Counted from the stretch's first letter, positions 20,326-50,298 are shown. The stretch: DNA of 64,000 bases from an uncultured delta proteobacterium (GCA_963843145.1 CAWJJC010000008.1:29311-93310); one strand, 5' to 3'. The notes: generated by a model from the sequence alone, not told the origin. Numbers and translations: made by a program.

Positions 20326-20538
20326 AAGGTCTGGCTTGCCATCCGTAATTATGGCCAACTTGCCGGTCTTCCGCTGCCCGCCCACCCTCATATGTTGCGC
20401 CACGCTTGCGGCTTTGCCCTGGCCGACCAAGGGGCAGACACGCGGGTGATTCAGGACTATCTTGGACACAGGAACATTCAGCATACTGTAGTTTACACGG
20501 CGGCCAATCCCACGCGATTTGAAAGGCTTTGGCGCTAG
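20326..20538 (+). pseudogene. C-terminal fragment of a FimB/FimE-like tyrosine recombinase
   Basis: Manual translation: HPHMLRHACGFALADQGADTRVIQDYLGHRNIQHTVVYTAANPTRFERLWR*. Confidence 0.88.
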
Positions 20539-21196: not shown

Positions 21197-22042
21197 ATGA
21201 AACTTGATCCCACATCACCCGACTACGTGAAGGTCAAGCGTGGCCAAACTGGCGAATGCAACATCTGCCTGACCAATGACGATCTCAAGTGGGATCATGT
21301 TCCACCTCAGGGCGGAGTCGATGTTGCACCATTGGACCAGTACACAATTCTCGAACGCCTTGCCGGGCGCTCTCTCAAGCCCAATCGTGCGCTCACGCAG
21401 AACGGAGTGAAGTACAGGACGCTTTGCGAGCGGTGCAATAGCCGTCTTCTCGGCGGCGGGTATGACAAAGCGCTGAACGAGTTCGCCTTGACCGTCGGAC
21501 GCTTCCTCAACACTACGCTGCACCTTCCTTCACAGGTGTCCGTCGCCACGAAGCCAGCCCGCCTGTTGCGGTCGCTCTTTGGGCATCTGCTCGCGGCCAA
21601 AGCCGAACTGGAGCATAGTAAGCCAGACGAGGCGATGCGGCAGTACGTTCTTGATCCCGCGGCGCGAGTCCCGCCAGACTTGAACGTGTTCTACTTCGTG
21701 TACCCCTATCCGGATCTCGTCGTAGTTCGTGACGTGGTCATGCCAGCGCGCCGGGGGCGATTTGACAGCATGGGCATCTTCAGCATTCTCAAGTACTTCC
21801 CGATCGCGTATATCGTGACAAACGTCAAGGAGTACGAAGGACTTCAATCGCTTTCCTTCCAGGGTCCCCAGAACCTGGACCAAGTCGTGGACATCCCGAT
21901 CTCGCTGGAAAGCCTACGAGCACGCGATTGGCCGGAAGTAGTAGACGATGGGAACTTCGTGGCCGGAGGGGGCTCGACAGGGCAGAGCTCTGTGACGGCA
22001 ATCCCGAAGGGAGCGAAACTGAGAGGGCCAACAAAGACCTGA
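21197..22042 (+). CDS. HNH-endonuclease-like protein carried on an integron-type gene cassette
   Basis: CNIC...WDHVPP...LCERCN; GGAGA RBS just after core site GTTGGCC at 21181. Confidence 0.7.
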   Translation: MKLDPTSPDYVKVKRGQTGECNICLTNDDLKWDHVPPQGGVDVAPLDQYTILERLAGRSLKPNRALTQNGVKYRTLCERCNSRLLGGGYDKALNEFALTVGRFLNTTLHLPSQVSVATKPARLLRSLFGHLLAAKAELEHSKPDEAMRQYVLDPAARVPPDLNVFYFVYPYPDLVVVRDVVMPARRGRFDSMGIFSILKYFPIAYIVTNVKEYEGLQSLSFQGPQNLDQVVDIPISLESLRARDWPEVVDDGNFVAGGGSTGQSSVTAIPKGAKLRGPTKT

Positions 22043-22106
22043 ACTCGACAAGTGAAAGGCCGCGCTTCGCTTGCATTCCACTTGCGCGTTAGGTCAGGCG
22101 ATGGCG
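22026..22106 (+). other. attC site with mutated R' box (GATGGCG instead of GTT)
   Basis: R'' GGCCAAC is the exact complement of the cassette-start GTTGGCC; GACCTGAAC/GTTAGGTC L-box pairing; CAAGTG/CACTTG stem. Confidence 0.75.
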
Positions 22107-36775: not shown

Positions 36776-38560
36776 ATGTGGCTCAAACGTTACTGGAAAT
36801 ATTTCGGGCTGTTTGTTTTATGCGCCGGGGTGATGATCGCCCTGGTCTCCTCCCATTTGAGTTCCAACCTTCGCTCCCAGCTCCTGGATCAACTTAAGCA
36901 GGAATTAAGAAAAGACCTGAACCATACCGCCCAATCCCTTCAAGGTCCCCTTCTCCAGTTTCCAATGGATAGGACCCGGCTCGATCGGTTGGCCGGGGAA
37001 GTCGCGCGGAATAGGGGCGAAAGGACCTCGGTCATCTCAGCCGACGGTCGCTTGCTGTGGGATTCCGCCCGGGAACCCCAACGGTTGGATCTGACCGATG
37101 ATTACAGCCATCGGCCCGAAATCATTATGGCCCGGGAAAAAGGCTACGGGGAAATCATCCGCCATAGTCCTTTCATGAATATCACCGCTCTGTTTGCCGC
37201 CGTACCCGTTTACCGGGATAAAACCCTGATCGGTTTTGTCCGTCGGGCCCGATCCTTGATGACGGTGGAGGACACGGTTCGGTTTTTTCGCCAGAAGGTG
37301 ATTCTTTTGGCCGGACTCGTGGGTCTGCTCTCTCTCCTTTTTGGGGTCTTTCTTCTCTGGTGGATGAATCAACCTCTGAAGGAAATCACCGTCATGGCGG
37401 AACAGATGGCCGAAGGCCATTTGAAGCAACCCCTTCATCTGTTCCCCCAGAGTGAGTTCACCCCCCTGGCCCTTTCCCTGGAAAAAATGTCCCGCGACTT
37501 GCGGGGCAAACTGGACCTGCTGGACGCCGAAACCAGCCGATTACGGGCCATCCTTCTGGCCATGCGGGAAGGGGTCCTGGTGACCAATGAAAGAGGGTTG
37601 ATCACGCTGATCAACCCCTTCCTGCGGAACCTCCTGGGCGGAAAGATCCAGTGGGAAAATAGAACCGTCCAGGAAATCTTCATGAACGCCGAATTGCAGA
37701 ATGGCGTGGATGCCATCCTCCAGGGGGAATCGTTCCACCGCCTGCAGATTAGTCTGGGATGGGAGTCCCCCCGTTTCTTTGAGGTCCAAATCGTGCCCTT
37801 GATCTCGGTTCAATTACCCCAGGGCGCCGTGGTCATTTTTCATGACATTACCGATCTCAAACACCTGCTCAAAGTCCGACAGGATTTTGTGGCCAACGCC
37901 TCCCATGAACTGCGGACCCCCTTGACGGCCATCAATGGCGCCTTGGAAACCCTACTGGCCATTCTTCCCACGCCAGACCAGGATACCGCCAAGTTCTTTA
38001 CCATCCTTCAGAAAAATGTTCGGAGAATGAACTACCTCGTTTCCGATCTACTGGATTTGGCCAAATTGGAAGGACAGGAACGGGCGGAGATGTTCTTGGA
38101 CGAAGTCGACGTGGCGGAAGTCTTAAAATCGGCCCTCCATTCCGTTTCGGATCTCGCCCAGGAAAAAAACATTACCTTGACTCCGGACCTGTCCGGCATT
38201 TCCGAAGGATGTTCCTTGTTCTGGGAGCGGGACCGGGTGCAACAGGCGGTTTTCAACCTGCTGGACAATGCCGTTAAGTATACCCCGCCCGGAGGAAAGG
38301 TTGACTTGTCCGCCCGGGAAGCCGATAAATCTCTGGTGATCTCCGTAACCGATACCGGACTGGGCATACCCAAGGAACACCTGGCTCGTATTTTCGAGCG
38401 CTTCTATCGAGTGGATCGGGATCGATCCCGGGAAATGGGCGGCACCGGCCTGGGCCTATCTATCGTCAAACACATCGTCGAAGCCCATAAGGGGACCGTC
38501 GAGGCCCAGAGCGAACTGGGTCGGGGTTCCACCTTCACCCTGACCTTTCCAAAAAAATGA
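36776..38560 (+). CDS. phoR: PhoR-type sensor histidine kinase (HAMP-PAS-HisKA-HATPase)
   Basis: FVANASHELRTP, NLLDNAVKY and RFYRVDRDRSREMGGTGLGL motifs. Confidence 0.9.
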   Translation: MWLKRYWKYFGLFVLCAGVMIALVSSHLSSNLRSQLLDQLKQELRKDLNHTAQSLQGPLLQFPMDRTRLDRLAGEVARNRGERTSVISADGRLLWDSAREPQRLDLTDDYSHRPEIIMAREKGYGEIIRHSPFMNITALFAAVPVYRDKTLIGFVRRARSLMTVEDTVRFFRQKVILLAGLVGLLSLLFGVFLLWWMNQPLKEITVMAEQMAEGHLKQPLHLFPQSEFTPLALSLEKMSRDLRGKLDLLDAETSRLRAILLAMREGVLVTNERGLITLINPFLRNLLGGKIQWENRTVQEIFMNAELQNGVDAILQGESFHRLQISLGWESPRFFEVQIVPLISVQLPQGAVVIFHDITDLKHLLKVRQDFVANASHELRTPLTAINGALETLLAILPTPDQDTAKFFTILQKNVRRMNYLVSDLLDLAKLEGQERAEMFLDEVDVAEVLKSALHSVSDLAQEKNITLTPDLSGISEGCSLFWERDRVQQAVFNLLDNAVKYTPPGGKVDLSAREADKSLVISVTDTGLGIPKEHLARIFERFYRVDRDRSREMGGTGLGLSIVKHIVEAHKGTVEAQSELGRGSTFTLTFPKK

Positions 38561-38649
38561 AAAAAGGCCCGGGGTTGAACATCCCGGGCCTTTTTTCTGC
38601 AACTTTTATAAAAGAATGGTCCGGTGTCTTTCCCGGACCATTCTTTTAT
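38560..38649. terminator. Two tandem bidirectional intrinsic terminators between convergent genes
   Basis: AAAAAGGCCCGGG..CCCGGGCCTTTTTT and AAAAGAATGGTCCGG..CCGGACCATTCTTTT. Confidence 0.85.
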
Positions 38650-39939
38650 TTAGAACTTATACTGAAAGCCTATCTGGTACATGTTGCTGTCGCCCGTCTT
38701 GGGATTTTCATTGTCGGTCCGTTCCCAGGCCATATAGGGCATGAACTCTTTGGTCAGGTCGTAGGAGATACCGGCGATATAAGTCGTTACTCCATCATTG
38801 GATACGTCTTTATTGGGGTCGTAGTAATCCACTTTGCCGAAGAGCCGCATCTTTTCGGCCCCGGGGATCCGCACAAAACCGGCGGCCACCCAACCGCTGC
38901 GGTCATTGTCCTCGGTTGAGTTCTTGGTCCCTTTGCCCCAGTAATATTGGCCCATCAGGGTGAACCACTTGTGCTGGTAGGAGAGCTGGCCGATGTTGAT
39001 CTGCCAGTCCGGAAAATCGTTGGTTTTTCCGTTGGCGGTGAAGTTTTTGTCGCTCTGCCCGTAGCTCCCCACGTAGGCCAACTGGAGCCCCTTCATCTGG
39101 TCGATGTTGGGCAGGGGCCGGAAGTAGACCAGACCGGAAATCACTTTATTGTTGTTGTTATCCCCCGGGTTGTCGTACCCCGGGCCGTTGTACACGCCGA
39201 CCTGGTAGCCGCCCCATTTCCCATCGTAATTATTGGAACCGTAGTAGTTCTTCTTGTCCACTGTCGGCCCAAAGGGTCCCAGAATGCCGACACCGTAATC
39301 CGCTGAGGCCTGGATGCCGTGACGGTCCAGGAAGTGCTTGCCCTGGACCCGGTAGGGCCAGATGTCGGAATCGTACATGTCCGACGCGTTGTGGATCAGA
39401 CCGAGTTCCGTGGTGGTGCCGCCCAAGTAGAGCTGGGCCATGGCATACTTCATCCTGACTTCCAAGCCGTTACCGACGTCGTTGGCGTCCTTGGAAGTAA
39501 AGATGTCGGTGGTGGCATTGAAGCCCAGCCAGGGAGTGACCTTCTTCTTGAAGGTCAGGTAGAGCCGGTTCAGCAGGAACTGGTTCTGGGTCTTGCCACC
39601 TTCCGTATCCTTCAGGTTATACTCGGCAAACATGGTGGTGCTGAACCCGAAGTCCTTCAAGGCCTTCGGCAGATAGGATCCTTTTTCGCCTTCCTTCTTG
39701 ATCTCTTCCTTCAGCTCCGCCTTCTCTGCCTGGGCCTGTTTACGGGCCTCTTTCATCAGCCCGTCCGCCTCTTCCTGGGTCAGGACGCCTTTTTGCTTCA
39801 AGAGGTTGATCAGGTGCAGGGCGTCGACTTCGCCCGCCTGGACCTGATGCCGGCTCCCCAGAAACCCCAGGAACCCAAAAATCATTAACCACAAACAAAT
39901 CTTTCTCCTCATCATGCCTTCTCCTTTCTCTTTCCCCAT
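38650..39939 (-). CDS. Outer-membrane porin, probably phosphate-related
   Basis: Signal peptide, N-terminal coiled coil, amphipathic beta-strands, terminal YKF; divergent from pstS with Pho boxes. Confidence 0.75.
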   Translation of the reverse strand: MGKEKGEGMMRRKICLWLMIFGFLGFLGSRHQVQAGEVDALHLINLLKQKGVLTQEEADGLMKEARKQAQAEKAELKEEIKKEGEKGSYLPKALKDFGFSTTMFAEYNLKDTEGGKTQNQFLLNRLYLTFKKKVTPWLGFNATTDIFTSKDANDVGNGLEVRMKYAMAQLYLGGTTTELGLIHNASDMYDSDIWPYRVQGKHFLDRHGIQASADYGVGILGPFGPTVDKKNYYGSNNYDGKWGGYQVGVYNGPGYDNPGDNNNNKVISGLVYFRPLPNIDQMKGLQLAYVGSYGQSDKNFTANGKTNDFPDWQINIGQLSYQHKWFTLMGQYYWGKGTKNSTEDNDRSGWVAAGFVRIPGAEKMRLFGKVDYYDPNKDVSNDGVTTYIAGISYDLTKEFMPYMAWERTDNENPKTGDSNMYQIGFQYKF

Positions 39940-40159: not shown

Positions 40160-41061
40160 ATGAAGAAAAAGATATTGACCGTATTTGACCACCGGGCTGC
40201 TGCTGGGTCTCTGGATGCTTAACCGTCCAGGCCGAGGCCAAAACTTTCTTGCAGGTGAAAGGTTCGGACACGGAAGTAAACCTTGTTCAGCGTTTGGCGG
40301 AAAATTATATGAAGAAAGACTCCAATACGAGCATCGCCGTAACGGGCGGGGGATCGGGCGTCGGAATTGCCGCCATTATCAACAAGACGACCGATCTTTG
40401 CAACGCCTCCCGCCCCATGAAGGACTCGGAAATCGCCCAAGCCAAGGCCAACGGCGTCAATCCTGTCGGGGTGGCCTTTGCCGTGGACGGCCTCTCGGTG
40501 ATCGTCAACGCCAAGAATCCCCTCAAACACCTGACGACTGACCTGATCGGGCAGATTTACCGGGGGGAGATTTCCAACTGGAAGCAACTGGGGGGACCGG
40601 ATTCCGCTATCACCCTCTACGGACGCCAGCCGAATTCCGGGACCTTCGTCTTCTTTCGCGAACACATCGTCAAAAGCGATTATTCCAACAAAATGGACCA
40701 GATGAACGGCAACGCCCAGATCCTGGAAGCGGTCAAGAAAGACGCCGGCGGGATCGGCTACGTGGGGATCGGCTACGTGGTGGATGACGCCGGAAAAGTC
40801 GTGGCCGGCATCAACGTCCTGGAAGTGGCCAAAGACAGCCGCAGCACTCCGGCTTCCCCTCTAAAGCTGGAAAACATCCTCAACGGCTCTTACCCTATCA
40901 CCCGGCCGCTGTATCAGTATTTTGACAAGAATAATCAGGCCAAGGTCGAAGGGTTCATCAAGTACGAGCTCAGCCCGGAAGGCCTGGCCATCACCAAGAA
41001 GGACGGCTTTTATCCCTTGACCGCTCAATGGAAAAAATACAATGCCCAATTCGGCTTCTAA
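40160..41061 (+). CDS. pstS: Phosphate ABC transporter substrate-binding protein (frameshift in the signal region)
   Basis: AAGGAGG RBS; KGSDT, GGGSGVG, SGTFVFF and YPITRPLY motifs. Confidence 0.92.
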
Positions 41062-41077
41062 CGGCGCTACCCTGGAT

Positions 41078-41975
41078 ATGCCCGGAATGAACAGGAACTG
41101 GCGGCAATTTCAGGATGCCTCCATTCACCGTTTTTTTCAGTTCAACGGGATACTGTCCATCCTGATCCTTCTGGGTATCTTCTTTATTCTCTTTAAGGAC
41201 GGGCTGCCGGCCCTGCGTGAACTGGGGGCCGCCAGCTTCATTCACATGACCTGGAACCCCACCTCCTTCGTGCTGGAAACCTACGGCATGGGGGCCATGA
41301 TCATCAGCACCCTGATGGTCACCTTTCTGGCCCTCCTCTTTGCCGTCCCGGTCGGCCTGGGCTGCGCGGCCTATCTTTCAGAAGTAGCCCCGAACTGGGT
41401 CCGTGAAATTCTGAAGCCGGTCATCGAAGTCCTGGCCGGGATCCCTTCGGTGGTCTTGGGGTTTCTGGGGATCGTCATCGTCGGCCCCTGGATCGCCCGG
41501 GTCTTCCACCTCCCTAACGGCCTGAACGCCCTCAATGGGGCCATCCTGCTGGCGGTAATGAGCCTGCCCACCATCATCAGCATCTCCGAGGATGCCATCT
41601 CCTCGGTGCCCCGGGCCTACAAAGAGGCCTCTCTGGCCCTGGGGGCCTCCAAGTGGCAGACCCTGATCCGGGTCGTGGTCCCCTCGGCCCTTTCCGGGAT
41701 CATTGCTTCGGTCATGCTCGGCATGGGACGGGCCATCGGCGAAACCATGACCGTCCTCATGGCCACCGGGAAATGCCTTGAAAACCCCCACCCATATTCT
41801 GGAGGCGGTGCGCACCATGACCGCCACCATCGCCATCGAACTAGGGGAGGTTCCGTTCGGTTCGGAGCATTATCACGGGTTGTTTGTCATCGGTTTCGTC
41901 CTGTTCATCATGACCTTTCTAGTCAACCTGGTCGCCGATATCGTCCTGGCCAAATACCAGGAAGTGGAACGATAG
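41078..41975 (+). CDS. pstC: Phosphate ABC transporter permease PstC (frameshift near 41772)
   Basis: LAGIPSVV and GRAIGETM; C-terminus lies in ORF 41778..41975. Confidence 0.9.
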
Positions 41976-42841
41976 TGCACCTTAATAAAAAAGCCATTAC
42001 GGAAAAAATCGGTTTTGCCGTGCTGGGGATCTGCGGTCTGTTGGTGGTTTTCACCCTTTTCGGAATCCTCTGGGATATCGTTTACCACGGCGGGTCGGTG
42101 ATCAACTGGGAGTTTCTGACCCAACCGCCCCGCGAAGGCATGACCCAGGGGGGCATTTTTCCAGCCCTCCTGGGAACCTTGCTCGTCAGCCTGATTACGG
42201 TACTCTTCGCCGTTCCCCTGGGCATGTTCAGTGCCATCTATCTCAACGAATATGCCCACCAGGGTAAGCTGGTCCGCATGATCCGGCTGTCAATCCGGAA
42301 TCTTTCGGGTGTGCCTTCGATCGTCTATGGGCTCTTCGGAGTGGCGCTGTTTGTCCGGGTTTTACATTTCGGGGCCAGCATCCTCTCCGCCGGGATGACC
42401 CTGGGGCTATTGACGCTCCCCTGGACGATCACGGCCAGCGAAGAGGCCTTGAAGACCGTGCCCAAACCCTACCGTGACGGGGCCCTGGCCCTGGGGGCCA
42501 CCAAATGGCAGGCCATCCGCACCAACGTGCTGCCCTACTCCATCCCGGGCATGTTGACCGGGGCCATCCTGGGTCTGGCCCGGGCGGCCGGGGAAACCGC
42601 GCCCATCCTGTTTACCGGGGCCGCCTTCTTCATCCCCGACCTGCCCAAGTCGCTGTTCGATCAGTTCATGGCCCTGCCCTACCACCTCTACATCCTATCG
42701 ACCCAACATCAGGACATCGCCCGGGTCAGACCGATTGCCTACGGCACCGCCCTGGTTTTGATCGCCCTCGTCCTTTGCCTGAACATGGTGGCGGTGTTGA
42801 TCCGCTATCATTTCCGGAAGAAAGCGCGAATGGGTCAATAA
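41975..42841 (+). CDS. pstA: Phosphate ABC transporter permease PstA
   Basis: GTG overlapping the pstC stop; GVPSIVYGLFG and RAAGETAP motifs. Confidence 0.92.
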   Translation: MHLNKKAITEKIGFAVLGICGLLVVFTLFGILWDIVYHGGSVINWEFLTQPPREGMTQGGIFPALLGTLLVSLITVLFAVPLGMFSAIYLNEYAHQGKLVRMIRLSIRNLSGVPSIVYGLFGVALFVRVLHFGASILSAGMTLGLLTLPWTITASEEALKTVPKPYRDGALALGATKWQAIRTNVLPYSIPGMLTGAILGLARAAGETAPILFTGAAFFIPDLPKSLFDQFMALPYHLYILSTQHQDIARVRPIAYGTALVLIALVLCLNMVAVLIRYHFRKKARMGQ

Positions 42842-42998
42842 TGACGGGCTCGCAAGAAGTCCGTCGACAGACCGAGGGCGATTAAGCCCCGGTCTGGGGT
42901 AGGGGTGGAACCATTTGAATTCACTTCAAATGGCGGGGGAGGGAAGACCCTCCCCCGCCGAGCAGAAAGTCGTTTTTTGACTTTTTGCGAGGTCATCA
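42842..42998. mobile_element. 157-bp MITE-like insertion with terminal inverted repeats and a 4-bp target duplication (ATAA)
   Basis: TGACGGGCTCGCAAGAAGTC ... GACTTTTTGCGAGGTCATCA; ATAA on both flanks; internal hairpins. Confidence 0.8.
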
Positions 42999-43001
42999 AT
43001 A

Positions 43002-43811
43002 ATGGTCAACATCGAATATGAAAAAAAACCAGGGGATGGCGGGGGGTCCAACGGCCAGCCAGTTAAAATCAGCGTCAAAGATCTTGATTTTTATTACGGT
43101 TCTCAAAAAGCCCTGGAAAATATCAACATGGACATTCCCGCCAATCGGGTCACGGCCTTTATCGGCCCCTCCGGTTGCGGTAAGAGCACCTTCCTGCGCT
43201 GTTTCAACCGGATGAATGAAACCATCCTGGGGACCCGAATCGAGGGAACGATTCTGCTGGACGGGGAGAACCTCTATGGCCGCGATCTGGATGTAGTGGA
43301 CGTCCGTCGTCGGGTGGGCATGGTCTTTCAGAAGTCCAATCCTTTTCCCAAGAGTATCTTCGACAACGTGGCTTACGGCTTGCGCATCAACGGGATGAAG
43401 GACAAACGGAAAATTGGGGAGATCGTGGAAAAAAGCCTGGTCGATTCCGCCATTTGGGATGAAGTCAAGGACCGGATGTATGAGTCGGCCCTGGGCCTGT
43501 CCGGCGGCCAGCAGCAGCGCCTGTGCATCGCCCGAGCCCTGGCCGTTCAGCCGGAGGTGATCCTGATGGACGAACCGGCCTCGGCCCTGGACCCGATCGC
43601 CACGCAGAAGATCGAGGACCTGATTCAGAAGTTGAAAAAAAAATATACGATCGTCATCGTCACCCACAACATGCAGCAGGCCGCCCGGGTTTCGGACATC
43701 ACCGCTTTCTTCTACCTGGGGAAACTGATCGAAATAAATGATACCGCCACGCTCTTCACCCGCCCCGAGCTGAGGCAGACCGAGGATTACATTACCGGAC
43801 GGTTCGGATAA
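43002..43811 (+). CDS. pstB: Phosphate ABC transporter ATP-binding protein PstB
   Basis: [24 protein letters not shown] and [10 protein letters not shown] motifs. Confidence 0.96.
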
Positions 43812-43957
43812 TCGCCCGTGATGCAGCCCAGACGCCCTCGTCCGTGTTCCCCTCGGGCGGGGAATCCCCGGGTTAAACTACTTTCACGCTTCCCAAGCGT
43901 CCTGCTGGGAATGGGGGTTTAAGACGGCGATCTCCGGCATTGCAACGACGCAGGCTG

Positions 43958-44026
43958 CGCTAACGCCTGGGTAACCGGGAGGCGGTGGGCCTTTTCCCGT
44001 TGATCTGGTGCATCCGGTCGTTATGC
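43958..44026 (-). other. attC site (cassette 4)
   Basis: R'' GCATAAC ... R' GTTAGCG; R'' is complementary to the cassette-start GTTATGC at 45353. Confidence 0.7.
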
Positions 44027-44029
44027 AAC

Positions 44030-45310
44030 TGGTCAGGTTCCCTTAATAGTGGCTCAATCGATCCTATATTTATCTGATGTCCGCAGTATTGGCAGGCACC
44101 GCTAAAATCAACGCTCTCGATCCTCGGGCGCGTCCTCACCACTGAGGCCCTCAAATAGAGACTCAAGGTCCACATCGATATCTGGATTCCCGTAGTAATT
44201 CAGAACAGCCTCCGCCGCTTGCTCTGGTCGAAGGATCTACTTTCCATAATGGTAGCAGCTCTGTATCCCTCTCAATTCCGCCAGAGCTTCTGTGGGGACA
44301 ACCCCTGATCGAAGATCCTCAATGAACTCCTCAATCGTTTCGGGCATTCTCAGATAAAGCCTCCCCGTGGATAGTCGTCACGATTTCGTCCCATTCCCTC
44401 TGCATCCGCTTCGATTTACCTCCCCTATGCCAAGTGTGGGGGATGATTCAGTCCCGGCTAGGGCACTGAATACAGACCATTCGCTGTTCTTAAGAGGGAA
44501 GCCACAAATCTTGTTGGCTGCTTTGTTGTAGGATTTCCCTAAGTTCAGTGTTATCAAGGATGGTTTCAGTTCTCTATCTTGTCTGCTTCGGTTCCTTCAT
44601 GGAGAACCCAATCAATGAGAGTCCATTCGTAGATTTCCTCTTCAAATTTGTGTTTGTATAACAAAGCCAATCACTGTGGTGTGATGCCATCTGAGTCCTT
44701 TAGCTTTTCGACTGATGGGCAATGGTTAGCTCCTCCTGCTGGTTCGGTCCGATTTCAGCGATGGCAGACAATTGAGTTACAGCGCCTGGGATATCCGGCG
44801 CATCGGTTGTGAAATCACTGCAATACAAGTCAGCACGGGCGGCCGTGCTCTAGTATCCTGCTCTAACGTTCATATCTGAATCTCCAAGGGAGCGAGCTGG
44901 CCGCCGCAAGAAAGATGGACATCCACGTCTATATGGGTCGCCTGAAGCCAACCTTAGTGGGGGAGCCGGTCATACCTTGATTTTCCGGGCCTCAATAAGG
45001 GCAATCTGAAGGATCTCACTATTGGCCTAATGTGAAAGATTATTGCAGAGATCCGAAATCCCAATATGTCTTCCACGCGGGTGAAGACGTCCTCAAACGG
45101 CAAACCTGCCTTTTGGGCATTCTTCCACAGTTTTGCCGGACGTTTGACTCTTCGGCCTCGGGTAATCTTAACTCGACTCCCTGTTCTGGCGGTTCCAACT
45201 GACTGAGCCTTAGCCGTAATAAGGCCGTCCCCTGCTCCAAGGTCTTCTCCAAATGTTGCTGCTCTGTTCTCATATTGATCCAAGAAGTCTTTTGGAATGT
45301 CCGTCTTCAA
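44030..45310 (-). pseudogene. RelA/SpoT-domain (small alarmone synthetase-like) cassette gene with long C-terminal extension; frameshifts and stops
   Basis: RVKRPAKLWK..VEDILGFRI; ATHIDV..LEIQI*TLEQD; coding-like sequence continues to a CQYCG motif just before attC. Confidence 0.65.
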
Positions 45311-45346
45311 TTTCAGGCCCCTTCACACTCTTGGTTTTGATCACGT

Positions 45347-45482
45347 GCATAACGGAAAGAGGAGGGCCGGGTGGCTTCAAAGAGGAAGAGATTATTTGGG
45401 CGTACTCACGCTCTAGAAAGGATGCCGACTATGAAATGAAACTGATAAGTAGCCCGGCTCCTCCTCCACCGACTTGTTAAGA
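45347..45482 (-). other. attC site (cassette 3, long type)
   Basis: R'' TCTTAAC immediately after a TAG; GAGGAG-gaGCCGGG / CCCGGC-cCTCCTC stem; R' GTTATGC. Confidence 0.7.
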
Positions 45483-45483
45483 C

Positions 45484-46273
45484 CTATTCTGGTTCTATAA
45501 GACTACGAACCTGCAACCTGGCATTATTCATTACAAATTGTCGTTTGAGCGCTTTTGTGACGTCCCCTGTAAGGACAAAAGGATGGCAATGATGACTCGC
45601 CGGTTTCGAAAATTCTCCTCCCCAATGCCGTCATGGGTTTCTCGTGGGATGGAATACCCAGGGCCGAGGAATCAACAAGAACCACTTAGAAACCTACGGC
45701 GACTTCCGATAGTCGGATAAGATCATGAATATTTGATGGTGTTCCACCATATTGCCGGATTAGAAGTTTAAACGACTTCTCAACTGCCAAATGCATTTCC
45801 CAAACGGCAAGCCCGATGCTGGCGTCATCTCCAATGAGGATGTCCTCAACGCTCCTTTCGATATGCAATGGAATGCTACTAATGAGGGCTTGGAGATACT
45901 TGCTAGGGTCATCTGCCGTCATCAAATTGGTTCTTATGCTTCCAGTTGCTTGGCAACTTCAGTCACTCTGTCCGCAACTCTTCAGTTCTTGTGTATCCAT
46001 AGTCTGAAGGTTGGGCGGGTTCAATATCCACTTGAGTACCTCCTCACCAGGGAGGACTTCATTGGGAAGGGTGACCCATATTCTATTATTTTCTCGAGGG
46101 GCAAATAGGGCCAGCGGCACTTTGACACGAAAGGTAGCGTGAAAAATTAGGACCAAGGCCACAGCATTGTCCTCTTCCGTCTTCAAGGCAGCAGCATATC
46201 GATCTGCGTACCATTTGGCGACAGCCACGTATAGTGTTTCCAACCACGTTTTACGATGGGTGGTCCTTTCCAT
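45484..46273 (-). pseudogene. HEPN-domain cassette gene, broken and probably 5'-truncated
   Basis: LAVWEMHLAVEKSFKLLI...PSNIHDLIRL HEPN-like motif; final frame ...RSLIEPE* abuts the attC. Confidence 0.6.
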
Positions 46274-46444
46274 TATCCCCTTTCACCTCGACCACACAAT
46301 ATTTAAAATAGGATAGCATCAATAAGGCTGTCTCCGGGAATATTAGAGAGTAGTTCTCAAAGAGGCCCATCTGTTGAAAGGCCGCAAAAGTATGATGTCA
46401 TTTCCCTCCCCCATTTTGCTTCAAGCCTTGAGGCTTCCAGCTTG

Positions 46445-46539
46445 GGTTAATGCGGCGTTGAGGCGTGGCCCGAAACGCGCCGCGGGGGCCGAAGGCCCAT
46501 GTGCGCAAGGGCCATCGCGGTCCAATGACCTGGTTGGCG
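46445..46539 (-). other. attC site (cassette 2) with degenerate R' (ATTAACC)
   Basis: R'' CGCCAAC is complementary to the cassette-start GTTGGCG; TGGCCC/GGGCCA stem. Confidence 0.6.
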
Positions 46540-46596
46540 CAGCCGTAGGCGGAGCCGACCGGGACAGGGACCCGATAGGGACGACGCCGCAGGCGG

Positions 46597-46659
46597 CGCC
46601 AACATACGGCTCACTGGGCGCCGGCTTTTTCGGCGATCCAGTGCAGCCGATGGTTATGC
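46597..46659 (-). other. attC site (cassette 1), canonical
   Basis: GCATAAC-catcg-GCTGCACTGG...CCAGTGAGC-cgtat-GTTGGCG, 6 nt after the AIPR stop. Confidence 0.9.
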
Positions 46660-46665
46660 CATGCA

Positions 46666-48579
46666 CTACTCCTCTTTGTCAGGGGCCAGAATGATGTCCC
46701 TTATCATGTCTCTGTATTTCAGCTGGCCTCCTATACCCCCCTTCATTGCTATCTTGTATTGTGCAAGTAAGTTGTTAAGCAAGGGTGTTGACTGATTTCC
46801 CTTACCAAGCTGATCCCATTTCAGAAAACTATTTAAATCGCTACCTTTTTCAAGATACTTAGGCTCTTTGAACACGCTATACTCATGTCCTACAGTTAGG
46901 TAATCGTCGGCAGTGGAAATTGCGTATTCCAACAGTGCACTCAGTACAGCCTCATTTTTGGGCTCGAAGAGCTTTAAGAACGTCTTGGTGAGGTTTTTGT
47001 TTGTAGCTGCTCTGTCAGCCGCAATGAAACAATCCTTAAGCAGCTCGACAGTCAGCATATAGAACAAGTGCCTTGTTTGTCCTCGTTGTTGCTTTTCTGC
47101 TCCACGGCCAAACTTAAAACGTGTACCCGCCTTATATAGTTGGAATGCGGCATACAGATCATCGAGACTAAAGTCCTCCTGATTAACAATTTTGTGAAAC
47201 AGACTTCCTCCCGGCGCAAATGGTGGATTCTTGCCAAATGCAATACCTGCTTCTCCTAACCATGCCGCACCATAAACCTTCAACAGGTCAAAGGCGTTTA
47301 CGCATTCGGAAAAACTGTTTGGTATCAGGGTTCTGTTTTTGGTATGCCTTTTGAGAATCCCAGCCACCGCGTTGTATTTCCAAAAACACATTGTATTGCG
47401 AAGCCAGTACTCTTTGACCACTTTTGAAAGTCACTCTCAAGGGCCAAGAAGTCCTTATCACTTACCGCATTCTGGCTGTTCGTAAATCGTGTTGTTTCGG
47501 TAAGAAGTTCATCGCCGCCTATCCCAACTTTAACGATCTTAATGACAACGATACCTTTCCCAAGTCTTCTTTTCCATGTCTCCAGTTCGGGGTTTTGACC
47601 TGTCCCGCCGGCTTCAAGCTTCCTATACAATACCTCCCAAATTGTCCTCGTCGTCTGACATCCATTGACGACAAAAGGCTCCTGTAAGTTCGTATTCAAT
47701 GTTGTTAGGCAGTTTTTCAAACTGCTCGACAACAATCGTAATTCCGTTATTGTAAAGACCAAACCTTTCAGGTTTTGTCAAAAGGGTGTTTTCAATTCCT
47801 CTGTTTACCTTCCGTCTGTTACCAAGAAACTTTCTAACATTCTTCTCATAAAGAATATCAAGATCGCCTGTTCTGGTTTTGTAGGTCTTCAGGAAATCAA
47901 ATAGTTGCACCAAACCAACGGAACCGACAAGCATTTCTTCACCAGACGGAACCAAGTGGGCGGATATCGACACGCGAGTTTTTTTCACTCGGCTGACTTC
48001 GTCAAGAGTCCTGTGATAGATTATTTCAAGGTTAATGGCATCAGTCTCAAAAATCGCCCCAAGACGACTTTTTCCCATGGCCCTAATATCTTCTACCGCA
48101 CGTTTCTCATCTTCAGACAACGGTCTTTGAGTAGCATATACAAGGACCATCTTGTCCTTCTCGGATGCCTGTTTACGAAAAGTCTGAAGCCTCTCAACAA
48201 GACCTGCCGCCTAGGGACGAGAGATTACTTCTTTTCCCGTCAATGGTATCAATCAGTTTCTGGGCTTCTTCCAATAAAGTCTTAGTCCCGGAAAATGCAG
48301 AACCATATTTACTCTGGACTAAATACCAAGTGTCACCCCCGTTAGAATTCTCTTCAGTGTCGTCACCTCTCTGTAAATACGCAATGTCTATACCACCGTC
48401 GCCCGTACCATCGCAGTAAACAACGTCATCTGGAGACTCTATGTCTTCTGCAAATTAAAGCCAATGGTTCACTAACATTTTGCGAATCTTCTGCCGAGTT
48501 CTAATGTATTGGGGCTTCCGGCTGTGACGTCAGCCAGCCATTCTGTTTCAAACGCCTCCAAGGTCAAATCATTGCTCAC
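46666..48579 (-). CDS. AIPR family protein (first cassette), several frameshifts
   Basis: GAGGAGG RBS with GTG start; GDGGIDIA, LYEKNVRKFLG, FGLYNNGITIV, VVNGCQT and NSQNAV motifs across ORFs. Confidence 0.85.
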
Positions 48580-48655
48580 GGATGCACCTCCTCAAGGAAA
48601 ACGGTTTTAATATATGCTTCCATCATCGATGCTACATTCGTTGGTTCACATTTCA

Positions 48656-48802
48656 GGCATAACATAGTATTATGCCTCAAAAATAGCATCCCTATTGAGC
48701 ACCTCTAGGAATGCTATGCCTCAAAAAAAGGCCTGGCAGCCCATAATCTCTATGTGATCATGACGCATATGACCCCAATGAGGAGGGATGCTATGCCTCA
48801 AA
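48656..48802 (-). other. attI site and associated direct repeats
   Basis: GGCATAAT-actat-GTTATGCC simple site (crossover G at 48663); TATGCCTCAAA repeated at 48671, 48715 and 48792. Confidence 0.65.
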
Positions 48803-49170
48803 CGACTCGCCGGGGCGTGGCGCCATTGACCCCCCCAGCCGCTCCGGCCTGAGGGAACCATTGCCGTACTGCGGGAATCCGGGGCACAGAAGAAGACCAT
48901 CCCGCACTATATATCCTGGATTCGCCGGTTTGTCCTCTTTCACCACGGGCAGAAGCCTTCTTCGCCGGGAGCTGATCACGTCCAGGCTTTCTTGCGCCAG
49001 CGGGGTGGAAGAACAAGTGGCCGTTCCACCCAAAATCAGGAGTTGAACGCTGTGGTCTTTTTTTACTGCACGGTGATCAGAAAGGAAATCGGCGACTTTG
49101 GCTATTTTTCTCTGGCCCGGCGAGGTTTGCGCCTGCCGGTAGTCGCTAGTCGGGCGGAAGTCAAAGTGGT
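48788..49170 (+). pseudogene. intI: Integron integrase N-terminal remnant
   Basis: YISWIRRFVLFH, STQNQELNAVVFFY and ARRGLRLPVVASRAEVK across frames; divergent from the cassette array. Confidence 0.8.
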
Positions 49171-49484
49171 AAGCCCCGTCGATACGCTGCAACCTATTGG
49201 TCTTGGTTGGCACCTTTTGTTCCCTCCGTCTTTCTGTTGGACGTCAAACGAGGATTAAAGGCCCGATGGGATCGTTTAATTTATAAAATCACTTTGCTTT
49301 AAAGATGGAGTTGATTGTAGGATTATTCGTAAAGACGGGTCAATGAAATCAATTCTTGGGGGTATTGTCAATCGAAAAGTAAGCTCAAAGAGAACCCCAG
49401 ACACGCTCGGAGGATTTAGGGAAAGAGGGGGTTTCTGAAGAAGATGGGATTAGGCGGGGTTGGGCTTTTCAAATAGGAGCTGTG

Positions 49485-49748
49485 CTATTCATAATGGTAG
49501 CGGCAAGCGATCACCACCAAATCATCATGATCAATGGCATAGACCAGCCGGTTAGTTTCATCGATGCGGCGTGACCAAAATCCCACAAGATTCTCACGCA
49601 AAGGCTCTGGTTTGCCGATGCCCGTAAAGGGGCTGCGCAGAGCGTCCTGAATCAGCAGGTTGATGCGCTTAAGTGTCTTTTTATCCTGCCCTTGCCAGTA
49701 CTGGTAATCCTCCCAAGCCGCAAGCGTCCAGGTCAACCGATTAGGCAT
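49485..49748 (-). CDS. yoeB: Txe/YoeB family toxin
   Basis: AWEDYQYWQ, GIGKPEPL, WSRRI and CRYHY motifs. Confidence 0.95.
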   Translation of the reverse strand: MPNRLTWTLAAWEDYQYWQGQDKKTLKRINLLIQDALRSPFTGIGKPEPLRENLVGFWSRRIDETNRLVYAIDHDDLVVIACRYHYE

Positions 49749-49995
49749 CCGGAAGATCTCGGGCTGCCACTTTGCCTCTACGGTACTGCTTGATCGAACG
49801 CGCCAAGTGCGCGGCATTAGCCGGGGACTTAAGCAGGTGGACGGTTTCCATCAGGCTGTTGAAAGTGTCGAGCGACATTACCACCGCATCCGGTGCGTCA
49901 CGACGTGTGATCACGGTGAAATCGGCATCCGTGACAGCCTGATCTAATATACCCTTGAGGGCGTTTCGTGCCACAGAAAAATTTACAATACGCAT
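49741..49995 (-). CDS. yefM: YefM/Phd family antitoxin
   Basis: FSVARNALK and LMETVHLLKSPANAAHL motifs; overlaps yoeB. Confidence 0.93.
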   Translation of the reverse strand: MRIVNFSVARNALKGILDQAVTDADFTVITRRDAPDAVVMSLDTFNSLMETVHLLKSPANAAHLARSIKQYRRGKVAARDLPDA

Positions 49996-50006
49996 AGCAA
50001 CACTCC

Positions 50007-50024
50007 TGTCCAATTTACTGTACA
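50007..50024. promoter_or_regulatory. YefM-type operator hexamers
   Basis: TGTCCA (50007) and TGTACA (50019), 12 bp apart, upstream of yefM. Confidence 0.6.
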
Positions 50025-50298
50025 AGTCTATCAATTGATTTCACCGAACGCAAGCACGAATCATGCCGTTGACCGCCGACGGAACCTTTTTGCCTACTCG
50101 CTGTCGAAGCTGACCCGCCGGCCTTCATAGCACTTGCGGAAGGCTGGCATCCGAAGGGTCGAAGCGCCTTATTATATCAACCGGCCTGGCCGGGCAATAG
50201 GCGGTAGAGTTTTTTACCCCCTAATACCCACCACTTTCTCTGCTTTTTCATTGAAATCATTCAATATTTCCTGATTTCCCGAAACCCGGCCGATTTGC

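Follow-up and report, generated by a model that had tools for sequence, protein, structure and literature searches.

We examined a 64,000-nucleotide stretch (hereafter the window) from the genome of an uncultured delta proteobacterium (GCA_963843145.1, contig CAWJJC010000008.1, bp 29311 to 93310), in which an earlier note, made by reading the sequence, had described a hidden chromosomal integron with exclusively defence-type recognisable cassettes. The genome (G000) comprises 5.3 Mb, is 97.9% complete with 6.9% contamination, and looks like that of an uncultured Desulfobacterota-like, sulfate-reducer-like lineage. Between 43.9 and 49.3 kb the window contains no long open reading frame (ORF), and elsewhere its ORFs are intact and reach 1033 amino acids (aa), so that, as the note had said, the ORF track is blind to what lies there. 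This locus is flanked by pstSCAB (40249-43811; pstB side) and by a yefM-yoeB pair (49485-50034). It carries, on the plus strand, a remnant of an integron integrase gene (intI) that is divergent from an attI-like site and, on the minus strand, four cassettes and one stub; three of the four cassettes are coding and all three are broken. The platform claimed in the note, with its array on the minus strand, was thus borne out. The locus is very likely an integron remnant, and probably a degenerate sedentary chromosomal integron in which cassettes were inserted at G↓TT, intI has lost its catalytic domain, and the coding cassettes have become pseudogenes.

The intI remnant (delta-intI, 48793-49258, plus strand) starts at an ATG at 48793 and contains a frameshift at a run of seven C residues (48830-48836). 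The peptide encoded by 48830-49255 matches Phage_int_SAM_4 (E 4.5e-15) and positions 10-110 of the 315 positions of the integron integrase model TIGR02249 (E 1e-15, 57.9 bits), whereas XerD reaches only E 0.01 and 15.2 bits, some 40 bits less; the peptide is therefore closer to IntI than to XerC/D, the outcome on which the note had staked its reading. With about two thirds of the protein missing, the score of 57.9 bits falls far short of the TIGR02249 cut-off (265). The first codons of an N-terminal extension domain are fused to a canonical SAM-like domain, after which the reading jumps from ..RLPVVASRAEVK to the last approximately 8 codons, ..VVSPVDTL; the catalytic domain is absent, and the frames downstream gave no family match. 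Compared with a full-length IntI (L084), the remnant shows 57% identity over 103 aa with residues 195-297, its C-terminal end agrees with residues 486-501, and its first residues match the L084 extension. Since the extension, the SAM-like domain and the C-terminus each match L084, the remnant appears to be an IntI gene with two internal deletions, one between the SAM-like domains and one that would have removed the whole catalytic domain. In a congener (G002) the orthologous gene is truncated in the same way and bears additional lesions peculiar to it. In the window's own genome, none of 21 matches passed the IntI cut-off, and a tblastn search with the remnant found only the remnant itself and a second copy of the platform; IntI proteins over the cut-off are present in 6 of 21 genomes of the family. 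A 70-aa C-terminal tyrosine recombinase fragment at 20326-20538 might have been the missing half of intI, but this was rejected, as the fragment is of the invertase/Fim-like type and lies 28 kb away.

The relatives of the remnant include integrases of unusual architecture. A search of one genome per species, using an alignment of the remnant ORF and its relatives, returned 22 loci, and in five of these (Lentisphaerales, Lentisphaeraceae, Kiritimatiellales, Kiritimatiellae and Kiritimatiellia metagenome-assembled genomes, MAGs) the match begins an open frame of 508-707 codons, measured from stop to stop. Three of the five long frames, taken from the point where the match begins (501-504 aa), reach 428-449 bits on TIGR02249, L084 itself scoring 428 bits. 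In these long proteins the canonical IntI occupies residues ~191-502 and is preceded by an extension of ~190 aa, the first ~100 residues of which are a second SAM-like domain. Extended IntI proteins of ~470-540 aa were seen at L081:155-1666, L084:187-1689 and L085:1051-2556, and also at L044, L049 and L052; they belong to Lentisphaerales/Kiritimatiellae MAGs and, for a diverged form, to the window's own family. In the accessible part of the literature on integron integrases with an N-terminal extension no paper on such a clade was found, which does not in itself make the clade undescribed.

The attI-like site (48657-48802, minus strand) was delimited by an end of conservation at G↓TT and by three motif repeats. 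Its simple site, GGCATAAT-ACTAT-G↓TTATGC, is located at 48676-48657, and further copies of the GAGGCATAGCAT repeat are found at 48722-48711 and 48799-48788; the motif GAGGCATA.. is accordingly present in three copies, one in the simple site, one ~45 nt from it, and one at the intI start codon, which this last copy overlaps. The DNA of 48700-48650 folds with a z-score of -4.3. A similar layout is found upstream of full-length IntI genes in other phyla. When window positions 48657-48802 were compared with the upstream regions of L079-L097, the repeat motif was found to match the sequence around the integrase start codon and to differ between lineages (ATGCCTCAA, ATGCGTCA, ATGCGACA, ATGGATCAA); this co-variation of repeat and start-codon sequence hints at autoregulation by the integrase.

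Together, the 270 bp upstream of the remnant and its first ~45 codons constitute a platform module that was found in 11 of the 41 genomes searched, with up to six copies per genome. Sixteen copies were compared (the window, G000:C28 and 14 places in relatives), and in 15 of them conservation ends exactly at ..ACTATG↓TT, followed by differing TTRRRY and then unrelated sequence; the exception is the G002 orthologue, which has no attI simple site. The end of conservation at G↓TT is the junction expected of attI x attC recombination, and IntI-type recombination would once have inserted cassettes at this point of the platform. At the far end of the module, a block at ~49270-49400 is retained even in copies whose ORF has been deleted. 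Inside this conserved block lies a candidate cassette promoter (Pc), TTGACC-18-TACAAT (49343-49314, minus strand), which is directed at the array and scores highest among the 10 consensus matches of 43800-49500. Copies consisting of attI, the first-domain ORF and the promoter block were seen at G000:C28:628212-628530, on contigs C38, C112, C152, C173 and C177 of G011, on contigs C48, C54 and C316 of G013, and elsewhere; every platform copy examined lacks the catalytic domain, and several are internally deleted and retain only attI and the end block.

The sequence of 46440-46670 corresponds to two adjacent modules that are present in many copies in relatives. The left, variable module has the canonical attC layout, with an RYYYAAC box, a 5-nt spacer, a 7-nt L'' box, a variable hairpin and GTT, and in the relatives' sites L'' has one extra base relative to L'. 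A covariance model (R1) was built from 11 attC sites of other genomes' loci, none of them from the window, and searches were run with filters off. The 11 training sites have 84.8% paired cells, compared with 70.1% in shuffles (0 of 500 reaching the observed value) and at most 46% when the structure was slid, and 6 of 12 pairs show compensatory change. The highest-scoring site of the 64-kb window under this model was attC A (46659-46601; 47.7 bits, E 3.5e-11), and attC C (44026-43962) came next with 25.6 bits and E 1.4e-4. Among the 150 of 1918 candidates that were scored in the whole 5.3-Mb genome, attC A was the best of 12 matches at E ≤0.01. Folded as single-stranded DNA, attC A gave a z-score of -4.5 and attC D (45482-45347, 136 nt) one of -2.7. 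Each core motif pair named in the note is present on the minus strand: GTTATGC at 48663-48657 with GCATAAC at 46659-46653, GTTGGCG at 46603-46597 with CGCCAAC at 46539-46533, and GTTATGC at 45353-45347 with GCATAAC at 44026-44020. Of the four attC sites that had been counted, the covariance model supports A and C; attC D did not follow (E 2), and the fourth belongs to a non-canonical element, X, described below.

Further arrays of attC and X were noticed in the window's own genome at G000:C12:93500-99800 and G000:C10:40200-48900, with intact ORFs; their apparent cassettes include an IS200/RAYT-like ORF of 336 aa and a response regulator-like ORF of 449 aa. Further attC matches lie on at least nine other contigs of this genome. 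In a hydrocarbon-metagenome run, attC A alone (46601-46656) was found, with a single mismatch, on a contig of 389 nt that has a depth of ~2700, so attC A appears to be common to something very abundant in that metagenome. About 1.5 kb beyond the invertase/Fim-like fragment mentioned above there is a marginal match to the attC model (22026-22102, plus strand, E 0.041), with GAT replacing GTT.

Cassette 2 (46451-46602, minus strand), delimited by means of aligned copies in the family, contains no ORF and is a short variant of X, a repeat of ~150-165 nt with copies in 19 of 21 family genomes. It begins G↓TTGGCG, the TT being that of the attC A core site, and ends ..GCCGCA↓TT. In ~33 aligned copies the similarity ends at ..GCCGC(A/G)↓TTRRRY, often followed by a ribosome-binding site and the start codon of unrelated ORFs. 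Full-length X (~165 nt) has a first hairpin with arms TTGGCG.. and ..CGCCAA, followed by a closing stem of 11-12 bp; the window's copy is missing ~16 nt, including the R'' box, and it is this deleted box that forms the closing stem in the full-length element. One reading of the boxes of X is R'' CGCCAAT, L'' GTTGCCC, L' GGGTCAAC and R' ATTRRRY, which would make X attC-like with AAT/ATT replacing AAC/GTT. By our reading of the sequence, a stub of a second X, internally deleted (43923-43963, minus strand), joins the array to the chromosomal flank, which starts TTAAACCCCC at 43922 directly beyond it; in G002 a full X ends at the flank junction, where the window has the stub. The check by which three cassettes had been said to begin with a core site complementary to their own R'' box stands as far as the motifs go, but the 46603/46539 unit is this ORF-less repeat with non-canonical A↓TT ends, and the statement that all recognisable cassettes are of defence type is overstated, as this unit, which is among those that passed, is present in many copies and is not a defence gene.

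Two other readings of X were tried and rejected. As a structured RNA, X gave a stable RNAalifold fold, but the covariation term was +0.85 and compensatory changes occurred in only 4 of 60 pairs; as a canonical attC, it failed because no pairing is formed between the 3' end and the CGCCAAC box at 46539. Approximately seven X copies (among them L055:2556-2659, L056:1659-1717, those of L059, L017 and L069, G000:C12:93500-93600 and G000:C21:112850-112950) are preceded by a conserved AT-rich module that has TTGACA-N17-TATTAT-like boxes and is not an attC; at these copies X may be transcribed as a leader.

Some of these results weigh against an integron. The match of attC D was confined to its R'' side (45482-45435), and attC C misses E 0.01 at the scale of the whole genome, carries multi-base deletions and folds weakly, with a z-score of -1.7 on 44026-43967, a segment without the R' GTT at 43964-43962. 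As the R1 training sites all adjoin X, the model may describe a narrow sub-family. The end of X is A↓TT and not G↓TT, covariation in it is nearly absent, and only its boundaries suggest that it is a cassette. The candidate promoter is a consensus match taken from a scan whose 10 matches, against 6.5 ± 2.5 expected, are not significant by themselves. A rival reading takes the locus for a defence island next to a degraded Xer-type recombinase, with palindromic repeats like repetitive extragenic palindromic (REP) elements or miniature inverted-repeat transposable elements (MITEs) that merely resemble attC: X is GC-rich, palindromic and high in copy number, its ends are inverted, and some of its copies lie outside obvious arrays. 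Such an island is nevertheless most improbable, given the ~40-bit advantage of IntI over Xer for the remnant and its 57% identity to an IntI that passes the curated cut-off, the canonical R''/L''/L'/R' boxes with a bulged base that co-vary in 11 sites, and the G↓TT boundaries of two cassettes in independent metagenomes.

Cassette 1 (46603-48662, minus strand), which includes attC A, is one of these two and holds a broken AIPR/AbiU-type gene. AIPR (PF10592) was matched on two different frames, at E 2.3e-16 (60.8 bits) and E 1.5e-13 (51.5 bits), both above the curated cut-off of 25 bits, and the AIPR identity put forward earlier holds. The PADLOC AbiU model matched at E 7.4e-16 over positions 147-359 of 537 and MzaE weakly, and the C-terminal 254 aa gave no family match. 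Membership in the AIPR/AbiU group appears to be a matter of descent and not of function, the gene being broken. For comparison with metagenomes, contigs of four runs from four studies were aligned to 44000-49300, parts without coverage being uninformative. In all four runs, contigs that are ~96% identical cover only 46601/46653-48663 and end at the predicted core sites; on either side the contigs continue into sequence that is not that of the window and that varies from run to run, and contigs of 2030 nt and 2124 nt correspond nearly exactly to the cassette. Relative to the window, all four runs have 1-nt indels at or next to 47310, 47407, 47681/47683, 48210/48212, 48479 and 48615, coinciding with frame changes that had been deduced beforehand from the window, which indicates that an intact cassette 1 gene exists elsewhere and that the window's copy has at least six frameshifts.

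Cassette 3 (45353-46450, minus strand), which includes the long attC D, was recognised from homologues as a broken gene for a protein of ~324-338 aa with a HEPN-like domain in its C-terminal part. Its read-through (P0002, 46282-45527, two stops read as X) found nine protein clusters of 151-359 aa that are 52-77% identical; these homologues align over their whole length and are ~60 aa longer N-terminally, a part that is present in the window in another frame. A frame-aware alignment with P0004 gave 211 of 283 residues identical with 5 frame changes and 1 stop, and overall the cassette has about 5 frame changes and 1-2 stops. HEPN (PF05168, cut-off 22) scored 26.1 bits in P0004 and 18.3 and 19.2 bits in the other two intact homologues, and 17.1 and 15.1 bits on the window's own broken frames. 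No PADLOC match to the HEPN-like family and no relative of it among PDB sequences was found. In each of three metagenome loci the homologous cassette starts G↓TTAAGCC (GGTAAGCC in one) after unrelated sequence, the corresponding start in the window being A↓TTAACCC; in L100 an attC comes after the gene, and the R'' box of this attC is exactly complementary to the start of its own cassette. Cassettes 1 and 3 are thus discrete units that are found elsewhere, in other contexts, with the same ends.

Cassette 4 (43964-45352, minus strand), which includes attC C, was likewise recognised from homologues and is a broken gene for a protein of ~424 aa with an N-terminal RelA/SpoT domain of the small alarmone synthetase-like kind. 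Its read-through (P0001) finds three proteins of 362-424 aa with PF04607, and a frame-aware alignment with one of them, P0012, gave 288 of 406 residues identical (71%), with 14 frame changes and 4 stops. P0012 and P0013 scored 68.3 and 64.4 bits on PF04607 (cut-off 27), compared with 18.5 bits for the window's read-through. Both match the PADLOC candidate PDC-S33 (E 5.8e-15), and their nearest solved chains are RelQ/RelP-type GTP pyrophosphokinases (E 1.8e-14). The C-terminal ~220 aa of these homologues matched nothing in Pfam, PADLOC or PDB sequences. The read-throughs of cassettes 3 and 4 themselves had no PADLOC match, and no paralogues of the cassette genes were found in the window's own genome or in the fetched loci. 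The HEPN and RelA/SpoT identities that had been proposed therefore hold by way of intact homologues, marginally for HEPN (one of three over the Pfam cut-off), and not for the window's own frames, which remain under the cut-offs. The suggestion that these two cassettes could be new systems is weak, as intact homologues are present in public metagenomes and the RelA/SpoT family matches PDC-S33.

It is possible to ask whether the lesions of the three genes are real decay or partly long-read assembly error in a region of low coverage; we lean towards decay, and consider it rather probable that at least part of it is real. The multi-base deletions of intI are common to G002, X and attC C are deleted or degenerate, and some of the stops in cassettes 3 and 4 require base substitutions. 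A homologue of cassette 3 from another assembly, P0003, shares with the window's copy two out-of-frame segments, one N-terminal and one C-terminal, and the ORFs of another array of this genome, on C12, are intact. The intact ORFs in the rest of the window and the near absence of coding indels from the pst genes also count in favour of decay. There are several observations on the opposite side. The lesions are mostly 1-nt indels, some of them in homopolymers (T5 at 47314-47310, T4 near 47681, C7 at 48830-48836), and number about 25 in 4.7 kb, compared with a single coding indel in the pst genes relative to G002. Alignment with P0003 shows long identical stretches broken by clustered indels, including three 1-nt losses within ~45 nt of cassette 3, a pattern more typical of consensus error than of neutral decay. 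The record title of the close relative G002 suggests a long-read MAG series, and no sequencing run shared more than 0.10 of the words of the stretch.

Taken to its end, the consensus-error explanation would have the cassette genes intact in the cell, the frameshifts and some of the stops having arisen in assembling a strain-variable, low-coverage stretch, and a working set of defence-type genes would then stand beside a dead integrase. The much shorter array of G002, which suggests that this stretch varies in the population, would fit. We regard this as unlikely, though it deserves serious consideration, because indel errors would leave unexplained the large intI deletions and a 29-nt difference, which are shared by or independent between two MAGs, as well as the multi-base deletions in X and attC C, the substitution-requiring stops, the out-of-frame segments shared by P0003 and the open reading of the other array in the same MAG.

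Returning to a degenerate integron with decayed cassettes, the comparison with G002 also bears on the history of the array. The flanks of the G002 locus are 94-96% identical to those of the window and its intI remnant is 90% identical, but the distance from flank to remnant is 744 bp, as opposed to 4.8 kb in the window. As the two share the same truncated intI and differ in their arrays, the array must have changed after the truncation, by deletion or by recombination in trans. The present order is AIPR/AbiU, X, HEPN-like, RelA/SpoT-like and X stub. With no local integrase and none over the cut-off in the assembly, the array would now be recombinationally frozen; against this, the genome is 97.9% complete, and an IntI could lie in the missing part.

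The array might still be exchanged by an integrase acting in trans, encoded on another replicon or acquired from a neighbour by transformation, with integrase-less attI platforms serving as live docking sites. The distribution of the platform module is suggestive here, since each copy has a different first cassette at G↓TT and the promoter block and attI are retained even where the ORF is deleted; so are the differing arrays of two congeners with the same dead intI, and the IntI proteins over the cut-off in 6 of 21 family genomes. We nonetheless judge exchange in trans to be distinctly improbable for this locus: G000 has no IntI over the cut-off, the shorter array of G002 is explicable by a deletion between X copies, G002 has no attI simple site, and the decayed cassettes argue against recent capture. 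Nor were modules X, Y and Z found adjoining intact intI genes in nine loci of relatives, and the 14 kb beside the intact intI of L045 contain no obvious attC repeat family. A wider proposal is that the attI platform of the family is a multi-copy, integrase-less docking module served in trans by the ~500-aa IntI clade with the duplicated SAM-like domain, with the start-codon repeats suggesting self-repression (of translation or transcription) and X being a selfish 'bare attC' cassette; we offer this as speculation with a low probability of being correct.

For the frozen defence array described in the earlier note, these results favour the first word, the catalytic domain being deleted and no IntI over the cut-off having been found, and speak against a working defence, the coding cassettes being broken. 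If the three coding cassettes are indeed pseudogenes, no defence would come from them now. The label of defence type itself is drawn from domain homology and from the PADLOC AbiU and candidate PDC-S33 matches only, with HEPN marginal. Judged by their homologues, the intact cassettes would be single-gene defences of the abortive-infection or toxin type, namely an AIPR/AbiU protein, a HEPN-type RNase and an alarmone-synthetase-like nucleotide pyrophosphokinase.

The storage of phage-defence cassettes in sedentary chromosomal integrons has been reported, as has phage defence encoded by mobile integrons (10.1101/2024.07.02.601719; PMC12614218). As far as the accessible parts of these reports describe them, they share with the present locus the divergent intI and attI, insertion at G↓TT, cassettes bounded by attC and single-gene defence-type domains. 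Measured against the same parts, the present locus differs in an intI without catalytic domain, in broken genes, in its Desulfobacterota-like MAG and in a defence role assigned by homology alone. ORF-less gene cassettes are also in print (PMC6557892), and the accessible part of that report allows X to be likened to them as a short unit without ORF that has cassette-like bounds and lies between coding cassettes. On the same basis X differs in being one conserved sequence of ~165 nt, present many times per genome across a family, with A↓TT ends, and in being little more than a long attC-like hairpin.

An attC cluster that has no integrase is known as a CALIN, a concept of IntegronFinder. The present locus resembles a CALIN in having an attC array and no working integrase, and the additional attC contigs of this genome, in which no IntI over the cut-off was found, resemble one too; as an intI remnant and attI are still present, the locus lies between a complete integron and a CALIN. 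Among AbiU/AIPR proteins (PF10592, PADLOC AbiU, NCBIfam MzaE), cassette 1 matches AIPR and AbiU and, weakly, MzaE, but unlike the MZA system it stands alone, without MZA partners, and is frameshifted. The intact homologues of cassette 4 resemble toxic small alarmone synthetases, CapRel-type fused proteins and PDC-S33 in their N-terminal RelA_SpoT domain, and they match PDB 7ztb, a 'RelA/SpoT family protein' that we take to be CapRel, weakly (E 0.0018). They are unlike CapRel-type proteins in the ~220-aa C-terminal half without a match, and the window's copy is heavily broken.

A degraded integron hidden from ORF calling could thus be recovered by tool-free reading, and the published view of integrons as stores of phage-defence genes gains an example from an uncultured sulfate-reducer-like lineage. 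The copy in the window is a fossil, and the practical value lies in intact homologues as compact single-gene candidates for phage challenge: the ~2-kb AIPR cassette of four metagenomes, the 424-aa proteins with RelA/SpoT plus an uncharacterised domain, and the ~330-aa HEPN-like proteins. More novel than the array itself are the IntI clade whose N-terminal extension holds a second SAM-like domain and the multi-copy integrase-less platforms; together with the attI repeats at the start codon and the high-copy ORF-less cassette, these may be more informative on integron biology than the array.

Some minor observations were made in the surrounding sequence. Scanned against Rfam with E up to 1, the 38-56 kb region yielded no match in the integron locus and, at 38543-38651, sub-threshold matches to the Thr operon leader on both strands (40.8 and 32.8 bits, gathering score 55), which are probably a palindromic terminator between convergent genes. 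Relative to G002, pstC runs out of frame after an extra A in GGGAAAT at 41771, and because of this shift the 599-aa ORF at 41042-42841 is an artefactual pstC-pstA fusion. On the other flank, 277 bp of the window (49496-49773), comprising most of the yoeB toxin gene, are missing in G002, which retains yefM.

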